IMG/VR virus record: IMGVR_UViG_2778261154_000011
Strand: one strand, 5' to 3'
DNA length: 4,017 bases
Origin: a virus
Taxonomy: Duplodnaviria > Heunggongvirae > Uroviricota > Caudoviricetes
A program made the translations under genes and the position numbers. Positions 872-4,017 of this stretch are shown here, one piece after another; the stretch's first letter is position 1; each line of letters begins with the position of its first letter. The notes below the pieces were generated by a model. It did no database searches and was not told the DNA's origin. It saw nothing but the letters and a program-made list of their open reading frames with translations.

Positions 872-891
872 TCCTGACGTCATGCATACCA

Positions 892-916
892 GCCCACGTA
901 AACGCGTGGGCTTTTT
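892..916 (+). terminator. Rho-independent terminator after the toxin gene
   Basis: GC-rich stem GCCCACG (892-898) pairs with CGTGGGC (905-911) around a 6-nt loop, immediately followed by TTTTT (912-916). Confidence 0.65.
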
Positions 917-1069
917 CATATCTGAATTTCACCGCGCACCGCAGCGCATGATAACCACCGAACCTGCCCCTTTGGAATGAGCCTTTGAGGATACCAGTTA
1001 GTGCTGGCGAGCCTCGGTGGGCTGGTTTCCTGTGCGGCAAAGGTTCATTTCAAAGAACAGGTATACGAC

Positions 1070-1567
1070 ATGAAATCATTAACCCTCTTCAATCAGCCAA
1101 TCCGTATCGGTGAAGATGGCATGATCTGCCTCACTGATATGTGGAAAGCCAGTGGTAAAAGTGAATCTGAATCTCCGTACCACTACCTGCGAAACAAGCA
1201 GACCAAAGAGTTCTTAGCCGAGCTGGAGAAAAACCACGAATCTGTGGTTTTTACTGAGCGCGGTGTACACGGTGGAACATATGGCGGGAAGTTTGTTGCT
1301 TATGATTATGCAGCATGGCTAAACCCCGGATTTAAATATGCAGCCTATAAAGTCCTGGATGACTACTTCACCGGAGAACTTCAGCATCGCAACAGCTTAA
1401 GTGCGCAGCTCAATATGAAGTGTCATGAGTTTGATCAGAAAAAAGATATGGCGAGCTTCTGTGGACAAGGGCTGGCGGCATGGCGCTATACGAAGCCAGT
1501 GTTGGTCGCTGAGATTAACTCCCTGGCTAACCAGCTGCAGATAACGATCCCCGGGCTTCCGGGATGA
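1070..1567 (+). CDS. KilA-N domain protein (phage DNA-binding/antirepressor-like N-terminal domain) with an uncharacterised C-terminal region, 165 aa
   Basis: The N-terminal half MKSLTLFNQPIRIGEDGMICLTDMWKASGKSESESPYHYLRNKQTKEFLAELEK...GGTYGGKFVAYDYAAWLNPGFKYAAYKVL fits the KilA-N (APSES-like) pattern as I recall it (conserved basic/Gly/aromatic positions, then G-T-W/Y...A...WL-P-F). ATG at 1070 places the domain at the N-terminus. The ORF-track GTG at 1001 would add 23 residues with no support. The stop TGA (1565-1567) overlaps the next ATG. Confidence 0.65.
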   Translation: MKSLTLFNQPIRIGEDGMICLTDMWKASGKSESESPYHYLRNKQTKEFLAELEKNHESVVFTERGVHGGTYGGKFVAYDYAAWLNPGFKYAAYKVLDDYFTGELQHRNSLSAQLNMKCHEFDQKKDMASFCGQGLAAWRYTKPVLVAEINSLANQLQITIPGLPG

Positions 1568-1821
1568 GTGATCGTGTCATTGAATGCGCCTCCAGAGCGG
1601 GGCGCGACTTCTCAGAGTTCATGAAAGGCGAGAAGGGCATGATGGAAGCATTGGCCTCGGTGGATGAGTTTGGCGAGCAGCTGCGCCTCAACGGCTGTGT
1701 CAATCATCACTTTGTTAGCTACATGATGCGGAACTCGATCATGCAGGCATTCATGGACATGGCAAAAGCCGAGAGGAAAGAAGAGCGCCGGCGTAAGCGA
1801 GCGGAAGCAAAAGCGAAGTAG
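1564..1821 (+). CDS. Small hypothetical protein (85 aa) with Lys/Arg/Glu-rich C-terminal tail; translationally coupled to the KilA-N gene
   Basis: ATGA overlap at 1564-1567 (start within the upstream stop). The C-terminus KAERKEERRRKRAEAKAK is strongly charged. No recognisable catalytic motif; Cys/His content is too sparse for an HNH fold. An alternative internal start at ATG 1642 is preceded by GAAGGG. Function unknown. Confidence 0.45.
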   Translation: MSDRVIECASRAGRDFSEFMKGEKGMMEALASVDEFGEQLRLNGCVNHHFVSYMMRNSIMQAFMDMAKAERKEERRRKRAEAKAK

Positions 1822-1860
1822 CCATTACAAAGCCCATCTACTGGTGGGCTTGATAATGGC
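1821..1860. repeat. Nested inverted repeat / stem-loop immediately after the small ORF stop
   Basis: Outer arms GCCATTA (1821-1827) and TAATGGC (1854-1860); inner arms AAGCCCA (1830-1836) and TGGGCTT (1845-1851); 8-nt loop. This gives a 14-bp interrupted stem. No strong T-tract follows, so it may be an RNA 3' stabiliser, a weak terminator or a protein-binding site. Confidence 0.4.
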
Positions 1861-1873
1861 TTATACCCTACAC

Positions 1874-1899
1874 GGGATAACTTAACTGATATCCCTTTT
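1874..1899 (+). terminator. Possible second hairpin followed by a T-run
   Basis: GGGATA (1874-1879) pairs with TATCCC (1890-1895) around a 10-nt loop, followed by TTTT (1896-1899). The stem is short and the loop large, so this is weak. Confidence 0.25.
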
Positions 1900-2209
1900 A
1901 ACGGATAAAGGTATTCAAGCCTGACACATCATGCGCTGTATCGTCGCTGTATTCCCGCATTAACCATGACCGTAGCCCGACGGGGAACTCCTTCTGCGCG
2001 AGTGTGCGGGAATAATCAAAAACGATGCACACCGGGTTTTTACCGCGTTTATGGTTCGCGGGTTTGTCCCTCATGCTCGCCAGTCCTGTGCGGGGGTGGA
2101 AGAAACAGGACACTTACACTGATTCTTGTGGGTACGATGCTATTCCTTTCTGGATTATCCCGATGTCATTCATGCAGGGCGCTGTATCAGACGTTCGTCA
2201 TGGCTGTCA

Positions 2210-2980: not shown

Positions 2981-3914
2981 TATGATGGTGGCAGTCACTA
3001 TCGCACTGCAGCCACTGGTCAGGGTATTGCCGGTGACGGCTGTAGAATGGGCCGATCAAAATTATTACCTGCCTAAAGAATCGTCATACGGTGAGGGGGA
3101 ATGGAAAACGCTGCCGTTTCAGGTCGCCATCATGAACTGCATGGGCAATGACGAGATTCGTACAGTTAACCTGATTAAATCTGCCCGTGTTGGTTATACA
3201 AAAATGGTGCTTGGTGTGATCGGGTATTTTATTGAGCACAAATCCCGCAACACTCTTCTTTTTCAGCCGACGGACTCAGCTGCTGAAGATTTTATGAAGT
3301 CTCACGTGGAAGCAACAATTCGTGATGTTCCTTGCCTGAAAAAACTTTCTCCCTGGCTGGGCCGGAAACACCGGGATAATACGCTCACACTGAAGCGTTT
3401 TTCCTCTGGTGTGGGGTTCTGGTGTTTGGGTGGTGCTGCTGCCAAAAACTACCGTGAAAAATCTGTCGATGTGGTCTGCTATGACGAACTCTCCTCGTTT
3501 GAACCGGATGTGGAAAAAGAAGGTTCGCCAACACTGCTTGGCGATAAACGTATTGAAGGTTCGGTATGGCCAAAATCCATACGCGGTTCAACGCCAAAAA
3601 TCAAAGGCTCCTGCCAGATTGAAAAAGCCGCGAATGAATCTGCACATTTCATGCGGTTTTATGTTCCTTGCCCTCATTGCGGGGAGGAGCAGTATCTGAA
3701 ATTTGGCGATGATGCGACGCCGTTTGGCCTGAAATGGGAGAAAGGCAAACCGGAAACGGTGTATTACCTGTGTGAACATAATGGTTGCGTGATCCGTCAG
3801 TCTGAACTTGATCAGACCGGGGGGCGCTGGATTTGTGACAATACCGGGATGTGGACGCGTGACGGCCTGACATTTTACAGCGTCGGTGATGAGGAGATAC
3901 CCCATAAGCGCTAA
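2952..3914 (+). pseudogene. A: Terminase large subunit (lambda gpA-like), N-terminal ATPase fragment of 320 aa; nuclease and portal-binding regions absent
   Basis: From ATG 2952 (MNISEQQLSNMM...) the product is near-collinear with lambda gpA as recalled (TAVEWADQNYYLPKES, KSARVGYTKM Walker-A-like, VVCYDEL Walker-B-like, GDKRIEGSVWPKSIRGSTPK, FMRFYVPCPHCGEEQYLKFGD, YYLCEHNGCVIRQSELD). Similarity ends at ...SVGDEEIPHKR followed by TAA at 3912-3914, whereas lambda gpA is about 640 aa. No downstream frame in the remaining 100 nt continues gpA. The ORF-track start at 2895 is an upstream extension. Confidence 0.8.
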
Positions 3915-4017
3915 CTTAAGGGTTGAACCATCTGAAGAATGCGACGCCTCGGTGCCTCGTTAAGACGATGCCTCGCGTTCTTCAATTGCGTTTTGTAGGC
4001 TGTCAGGGATACTGTCC

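Follow-up and report, generated by a model that had tools for sequence, protein, structure and literature searches.

A structured leader and a promiscuous small-protein gene in a mobile KilA-N cassette of lambdoid prophages, a possible allele of the rha locus

What is the role of a pair of small genes carried between the lysis genes and the cos region of a lambdoid prophage, and to which known locus does the pair belong? The question is raised by a 4,017-nt stretch of the late region of such a prophage (IMG/VR record IMGVR_UViG_2778261154_000011; hereafter the window, to whose full length all positions refer), in which a gene for a KilA-N domain protein (gene 1, 1070–1567, plus strand) is followed by a gene for a small basic protein (gene 2, 1564–1821, plus strand). 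A first-pass annotation, made from the letters alone, described the two as an accessory cargo module situated between the lysis genes and cos, and was unable to match them to anything named. The location was read correctly, with the C-terminus of Rz upstream and Nu1 and gpA following from 2471, but the pair does have a name: it has been annotated since HK620 as hkbK/hkbL, and the architecture of gene 1 is that of ORF11 of phage D3. Here, we propose that the window carries a KilA-N allele of the rha-type accessory cassette, which lambdoid and P22-like phages harbour between their lysis and packaging genes, and that its product is a silenced Rha-like regulator. We put this forward tentatively, as a reading whose chance of being right as a whole falls a little short of even. 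The rha locus and the hkbK/hkbL annotation were already known, and what is added here is the promiscuity of the small protein with respect to its partners, together with a conserved leader RNA.

Gene 1, read from the ATG at 1070, encodes a 165-aa protein of the Bro family. The N-terminal KilA-N domain recognized in the first-pass annotation is borne out by Pfam (residues 9–101; 57.6 bits against a cut-off of 23.8), while the C-terminal region of ~65 residues, in which no motif had been seen, proved on profile search to be the ORF11CD3 helical hairpin (residues 109–161; 50.5 bits against a cut-off of 25; 2.4e-13). The gene is thereby a member of the domain-shuffling network of Bro and KilA-N genes, with KilA-N (PF04383) fused to a C-terminal module of that network. 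The Pfam scan detected no PF09669 (Phage_pRha) in the protein, an NCBIfam scan returned no match, and a sequence search with both proteins of the pair against PDB chains yielded nothing meaningful. Based on the fold-level resemblance of KilA-N, an APSES-fold domain, to Mbp1, the gene 1 product is predicted to bind DNA. A phage recorded for Actinobacillus, vB_Apl-pPE4 (PP818812.1, 19509–20068), has a KilA-N gene that shares 96% identity with its E. coli counterpart and is followed by no more than the first 22 residues of the small protein; such near-identity across host families is odd.

The 150 nt preceding gene 1 fold into a long hairpin with a minimum free energy of −55.5 kcal/mol (z −3.1). 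This structured 5′ leader (959–1066, plus strand) is an extended hairpin with a covariation-supported core of ~95 nt (968–1060) and is built on an 18-nt inverted repeat (970–987 and 1038–1055). Its 3′ arm and base pair with the Shine–Dalgarno-like ACAGG at 1057–1061, just before the ATG at 1070; at the base, CCTG (963–966) pairs with CAGG (1058–1061) in the window, and CCTTT with AAAGG in leaders of the HK620 type. The leader region comes in four sequence types, among which the helix is kept by compensatory changes. A plain MAFFT alignment of 13 leaders misaligned these types and gave a poor consensus fold, and we used instead a 7-sequence alignment and the alignment produced by a covariance model built from it. 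In the 7-sequence alignment, 14 of the 31 pairs changed on both sides, and 90% of the cells were paired compared to 38–52% in slid controls. The covariance model returned 47 matches, every complete one ending at the start codon of a Bro-family gene; they include Klebsiella tail-region cassettes, ST104 orf45, SPN3UB, phiEt88, Cronobacter, and four genes in a single Salmonella contig. In the resulting alignment, double changes rose to 23 of 31 pairs, with 89% of cells paired (slid controls, 37–52%) and a covariation score of 0.479 (controls, 0.07–0.10), although these figures lean towards structure because the alignment was fitted to the model. Since G–U pairs are frequent, the structure can be assigned to the sense RNA strand. 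Rfam gave no match at E ≤ 1 anywhere in the window, leader included. Judging from this pattern of pairing, the leader appears to bury the ribosome-binding site of gene 1 and to keep the cassette switched off.

Just upstream of the leader lies a promoter-like stretch (928–955, plus strand) composed of TTCACC (928–933), two GCGCA boxes (934–938 and 944–948), and GATAAC (950–955), so that the two hexamers stand 16 nt apart. Nearly every related copy repeats this order, with a terminator followed by TTTCACC or GTAAACC, two GCGCA boxes at a distance of 10–11 nt, an ATCAAC-like hexamer, and finally the leader. The stretch looks like a regulated promoter. The sole hit of a sigma-70 scan in the window, antisense within gene 2 (1765–1738), was dismissed, as five would be expected by chance.

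The link to a known locus comes from P22. Its rha gene occupies the same slot as the window cassette (15/Rz1, then rha, then orf80 and gene 3) and encodes Phage_pRha fused to ORF11CD3 (96.4 bits for the latter), the ORF11CD3 domain being 35% identical to that of the window. The region upstream of P22 rha matches the covariance model with 100.5 bits, the match ending at an in-frame ATG, and in pairwise alignment is ~95% identical to window positions 927–1058. The same slot, the same leader, and the same ORF11CD3 domain suggest that the window cassette is a KilA-N allele of the rha locus to which a small gene has been added; with KilA-N standing in place of pRha, it would be an allele of the locus and not a member of the Rha protein family. 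In P22 (our locus L264), the leader (1520–1647) ends at the ATG at 1645–1647, which lies in frame and 23 codons after the annotated rha start at 1576. Because that annotated start falls inside the hairpin, the true Rha probably consists of 178 aa, not 201 aa. In PMC4936722, which cites Mozola and Friedman 1985 and Henthorn and Friedman 1995, rha (orf201) is described as a late-operon gene that is under the control of integration host factor (IHF) and whose product impairs lytic growth when IHF is missing; the same paper reports that rha expression is normally silenced.

Gene 2 encodes an 85-aa protein of phrog_875 (3.2e-54), a PHROG family annotated without function. The family is narrow: a set of 1.84 billion representative proteins contains 21 of its clusters (50% identity), all of them from Enterobacterales. 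Both genes of the pair are real, as had been assumed, gene 2 being backed by a median dN/dS of 0.116 over 6434 pairs, a sign of purifying selection. The basic tail KAERKEERRRKRAEAKAK was confirmed at its C-terminus. The protein had been thought to lack an identifiable fold; AlphaFold2 in fact yields a confident model (predicted local distance difference test score 93) of three helices (residues 3–20, 26–42, and 48–84), although one with no known fold relative, a Foldseek search of the model against PDB and BFVD having returned no match at E ≤ 0.001. The basic EERRRKR helix is conserved, and directly after it comes a variable (AK)n end. We take this basic helix to resemble the RNA-binding arginine-rich motifs of the N proteins of lambda and P22. 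The 3′ end of the gene (window 1800–1818) varies by 6-nt steps, which gives proteins of 85, 87, 89, 91, 93, and 95 aa (e.g. in loci L009, L011, L046, and L060). A zinc site formed by C8, C45, H48, and H49 was considered, but C8 is not conserved in P0122, and the site remains speculation. Several copies of gene 2 are truncated or pseudogenes, and the truncated ones persist beside intact partner genes.

As noted in the first-pass annotation, the two co-oriented genes share an ATGA stop/start overlap (1564–1567), which is read directly at the plus-strand junction GGGATGAGTG. A junction hairpin, CCCGGGCTTCCGGG (1550–1567, plus strand), stands directly before the overlap; the fold of 1540–1580 is weak (−17 kcal/mol, z −2.4). 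No Shine–Dalgarno sequence precedes the ATG of gene 2. Among 248 loci that we gathered as carrying the small gene, a co-oriented Bro-family open reading frame (ORF) ends at the small-gene start in 246, the junction being a 4-nt overlap in 151 loci and a 2-nt gap in 91. Translational coupling of the two genes, and hence the coupled expression proposed earlier, is plausible on the strength of these junctions and of the missing Shine–Dalgarno sequence.

The identity of the upstream partner, on the other hand, varies. It is KilA-N + ORF11CD3 in 146 loci, KilA-N + P63C in 86 (HK97, mEp234, mEpX1, and Klebsiella phages), Phage_pRha in three, Phage_pRha + ANT in one, and a frameshifted copy in one. 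In loci of the P63C type, the small gene is precisely where the DNA becomes similar to the window (from 1564 or 1579), and an identical 60-aa core of the small protein accompanies both KilA-N classes, the KilA-N domains of which share only 23% identity. KilA-N + ORF11CD3 genes also occur without the small partner, as in D3 ORF11, ST104, SPN3UB, phiEt88, Cronobacter prophages, and cdtI. The ORFs found 3′ of distant gene 1 homologues (66 and 78 aa in Cronobacter, 39 aa in phiEt88) turned out to be unrelated to gene 2. The earlier idea of a functional pair therefore survives in part: the small gene adjoins a Bro-family gene almost without exception, but four partner architectures, common solo homologues of gene 1, and truncated small genes argue that it is a lineage-restricted satellite of Bro-family genes in general and not the specific partner of this KilA-N protein. 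One Salmonella Kottbus contig (L101, 1–3534) carries four leader-preceded Bro-family genes in a row (KilA-N + ORF11CD3, P22_AR_N + ORF11CD3, a weak KilA-N + ORF11CD3, and KilA-N), along with a 59-aa remnant retaining just the first 15 residues of the small protein.

Beyond HK620, the pair is found in Stx1/Stx2 phages (1717, and 2851 with "kilA"), Ss-VASD, and ECP1, and in several Salmonella and Klebsiella phages. Of 5426 complete E. coli genomes, 2763 have matches to parts of window positions 900–1900, and 377 carry at least 80% of this interval; a 1-kb stretch is identical in several E. coli chromosomes, where the two genes are annotated as "KilA-N domain-containing protein" and "hypothetical protein". 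The cassette occurs in three contexts, namely after Rz, inside tail operons, and at the close of arc-arc-antirepressor (immI-like) operons. The pair is kept while its flanks vary, with Rz, tail genes, or ParE upstream and several terminase types, HNH, Gp49-like genes, or lipoproteins downstream, and it is absent from some otherwise syntenic phages. The neighbourhood survey thus agrees with the accessory cargo module first supposed, and the unit resembles a moron in being present or absent between otherwise syntenic genomes and variably flanked. On these sequence comparisons, the two genes form an accessory cassette that is mobile and very common among E. coli-type prophages.

The ends of the unit can be placed at ~917, after a terminator, and at 1861, the end of a closing hairpin. 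The intrinsic terminator (891–916, plus strand; stem 891–912, then TTTTT; −16.1 kcal/mol, z −4.2) is the 3′ end of an upstream ParDE cassette and also shields the KilA-N cassette from upstream transcription; of the 42 related cassettes that we examined, nearly all have a terminator at the equivalent place. The 3′ boundary hairpin (1820–1861, plus strand; −27.2 kcal/mol, z −5.9) overlaps the stop codon of gene 2 and has no T-run. A terminator upstream and a strong stem–loop downstream had both been described, and both exceed shuffled controls; the description needs amending only in that the former closes the ParDE cassette and the latter lacks a T-run. When 80 near-identical IMG/VR loci were compared with the window, similarity began at 934 in 60 and broke at 1858, inside the 3′ hairpin, in 41. 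In 34 loci, an extra cassette, for example a Gp49/Sf6-gp66-like gene, has been inserted and is itself followed by another hairpin built to this design; GATAATG marks the recombination joints. Of 234 loci, 197 have a hairpin of at least −15 kcal/mol beginning at the stop codon, and in the Klebsiella lineage the equivalent 3′ element is a canonical terminator with a T-run. To judge by where similarity breaks, the 3′ hairpin of the window is a recombination joint that is terminator-like in appearance. Hairpins of this design also end successive cassettes in L009 (4324–4975), L011 (4268–5207), and other IMG/VR loci; they share an outer ATTAC/TAATG stem and have a 9–10-bp inner stem that differs by compensatory changes, and in loci of the L009/L011 type a Gp49/Sf6-gp66-family gene is inserted between two of them.

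Taken as a KilA-N allele of the rha cassette, the locus would operate through a series of functional steps, all of which we infer. The cassette would have its own weak, regulated promoter, and the leader would block translation of gene 1, and through coupling also of gene 2, until RNase III or an RNA-binding factor, for instance, opens or cuts the hairpin. The gene 1 protein would bind DNA as an oligomer, and gene 2 would be made by re-initiation in a fixed ratio to it. Considering that gene 2 accompanies Bro-family genes of four unrelated architectures, its product is less likely to bind its neighbour specifically than to serve as a general cofactor whose target, be it nucleic acid or a common protein, is shared. 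If Rha of P22 and phi80 is a guide, the products may be regulators that are normally held off and would harm phage growth if over-expressed. They would probably act in phage–phage conflict or crosstalk and not in virion assembly or lysis.

Several observations weigh against this proposal. The N-terminal domain is KilA-N in gene 1 and Phage_pRha in P22 Rha, and the coupled second gene of the window cassette has no equivalent beside P22 rha; the Rha phenotype may thus not extend to the cassette. IHF control is not transferable from P22, since no IHF consensus WATCAANNNNTTR occurs near the leader (880–1100). The consensus sigma-70 scan called no promoter at 917–967, which holds the promoter-like stretch, and the bias of the model-fitted alignment mentioned above applies to the larger of the two sets of covariation figures. 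The leader could, moreover, serve RNA processing or stability instead of translational repression. Finally, gene 2 is dispensable in some prophages, given that several of its copies are pseudogenes.

Of the alternatives, anti-phage defence fares best, ahead of an antirepressor function and of a toxin–antidote pair, although we consider it doubtful. Here, the cassette would act by abortive infection or exclusion, with a KilA-N effector like that of BstA silenced by the leader and released on infection, and with the small protein as regulator or co-effector. Such a role would suit the terminator-insulated, moron-like build with its tight putative translational silencing, the variable cargo slot beside a ParDE pair, and the intactness of the cassette in a prophage whose terminase gene has been broken by IS421. 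PADLOC also reported, as its sole match, a domain-level hit to the candidate system PDC-S22 (1.2e-8). However, PDC-S22 is unvalidated and was matched via 31 residues of the KilA-N region, and no PADLOC model of a validated system matched; the defence or superinfection-exclusion role suggested in the first-pass annotation was accordingly overstated. The C-terminal domain is ORF11CD3, as in Rha and D3 ORF11, and not that of BstA. Furthermore, the small gene also ends arc/ant-type antirepressor operons and occurs inside tail operons, which are expressed in infection or lytic growth and not in lysogeny, and the absence of a sigma-70 promoter call counts against a defence gene as well.

Its place at the close of arc-arc-antirepressor operons in relatives brings up a second alternative, unlikely in our estimation, in which the cassette is a dedicated antirepressor module, gene 1 inactivating the repressors of the carrier, of co-resident prophages, or of satellites, and the small protein assisting. 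The domains of the Bro network (KilA-N, pRha, ANT, P22_AR, and ORF11CD3) are phage antirepressor domains (PMC10111431), and the Gifsy antirepressor operons likewise lie outside the immunity region, behind terminators, and contain small accessory genes (PMC3121763). Yet the Pfam scan found no ANT, P22_AR_N, or P22_AR_C domain in gene 1 or any other protein of the window, which also contains neither a LexA box nor arc/mnt genes. The predicted KilA-N fold suggests DNA binding rather than repressor binding, and Rha itself is not known to be an antirepressor, in spite of being annotated as such.

A more speculative proposal, to which we give no better prospects than to the antirepressor module, would treat the leader RNA, the swappable Bro-family gene, and the small protein with its arginine-rich tail as an undescribed post-transcriptional switch. 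The leader would silence a harmful effector, a signal from the phage or from infection would open or cleave it, and the small protein would bind the hairpins of the cassette or other nucleic acid, in the service of inter-phage warfare or abortive defence. Such a switch would explain the Rha phenotype.

That the pair is a toxin and its antidote, with a toxic KilA-type protein neutralized by the co-translated small protein, is very improbable. P1 KilA kills its host when expressed, and P1 kilA is 30% identical to the gene 1 protein; the layout of the two genes, coupled in translation, and the silencing by the leader would also fit. Against this, KilA-N + ORF11CD3 genes persist without the small gene in cdtI, ST104, SPN3UB, D3, phiEt88, and Cronobacter, truncated small genes persist beside intact partners, and neither protein matches a toxin–antitoxin family in Pfam or NCBIfam. 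Specific neutralization is further argued against by the occurrence of the same small-protein core with partners of unrelated domains. An ordinary late-gene role in lysis, packaging, or structure, which the location in the late operon between the lysis genes and cos/terminase might suggest, can hardly be credited for a terminator-bracketed unit that is patchily present among syntenic phages and relocates to tail and immI-like regions, whose gene 1 has a predicted DNA-binding fold, and neither protein of which matches a head, tail, or lysis PHROG.

The remainder of the window gives the setting of the cassette. The C-terminus of Rz (2–196) is followed by a ParD-like/ParE-like pair (337–567 and 542–871), which stands between Rz and the KilA-N gene. 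This type II toxin–antitoxin cassette is complete (~197–933) and represents an insertion relative to HK620, JLK-2012, Ss-VASD, and Stx phages, where sequence corresponding to window position ~196 is joined straight to ~903–956 without ParDE; it has the appearance of a classical moron that entered at the terminator. A cos-type region lies between gene 2 and Nu1 (2471–2980), and the ATPase part of gpA begins at ~2970. Upstream of Nu1, CCGGACAT occurs three times (2296–2303, inverted; 2355–2362; 2385–2392), with a site resembling the IHF consensus, one mismatch apart, on the minus strand between the first and second copies (2317–2329). We take this arrangement to resemble the R3-I1-R2-R1 layout of lambda cosB. 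RefSeq places a 58-aa hypothetical protein, WP_001205133.1, in the cos-proximal spacer (1898–2074, minus strand); the 71-aa ORF there (1898–2113, minus strand) has no PHROG match, overlapping plus-strand ORFs match only apparently over-called PHROGs, and the RefSeq ORF is unlikely to be a gene. At ~3903, an IS4-like IS421 element, whose end occupies window 3904–4017, interrupts the large terminase gene, and the prophage is therefore packaging-defective. IS421 is multi-copy in E. coli, with further insertions in alkB, traI, and yfjI, and in the intact relatives L018 and L055 the match to the window stops at 3903.

Bro-family genes (KilA-N, Rha, and Ant-like) are among the commonest unexplained genes of temperate phages and, to our knowledge, the phenotype of P22/phi80 Rha has stood without a mechanism since the 1980s. 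By tying a very common cassette of E. coli and Shigella prophages to the rha locus, the window provides two handles on them, namely a covariation-supported leader without an Rfam family and a small conserved protein that follows Bro-family genes of any domain make-up. If the leader is indeed a silencing device, it would account for the tolerance of phages towards genes detrimental to their own growth, and would offer a direct way to switch such genes on and learn their role.

Besides P22 rha, its nearest characterized relative, several known systems invite comparison with the cassette. Among them are the LexA-controlled antirepressor operons of Gifsy prophages (dinI-gfoA/gftA-irsA), which resemble it in being multi-gene units outside the immunity region, with a Rho-independent terminator upstream, their own regulated promoter, and small accessory proteins (PMC3121763), but which encode proteins unrelated to the window pair, lack a structured leader, and are controlled through a LexA box that the window does not contain. 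BstA, a prophage-encoded defence protein that has, like the gene 1 product, an N-terminal KilA-N-like DNA-binding domain (PMC8585504), demonstrates that proteins of this kind are capable of a defence role; it differs in its C-terminal domain and in being a single gene next to the repressor locus. ORF11 of Pseudomonas phage D3, the namesake of ORF11CD3, has an architecture identical to that of gene 1 (KilA-N + ORF11CD3; 27% identity over 92% of the protein) and is likewise inserted moron-like among late genes, but it belongs to a different host lineage, has no phrog_875 partner, and yields no leader when its locus is searched with the covariance model. HK97-type phages (gp60/gp61 in HK97) have the small gene, the type of leader, and the hairpin in common with the window, with a first gene of a different make-up (KilA-N + P63C, 242 aa) and a 2-nt gap in place of the ATGA overlap. 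The hkbK/hkbL genes of HK620 are the same pair as that of the window, with 96–100% protein identity.

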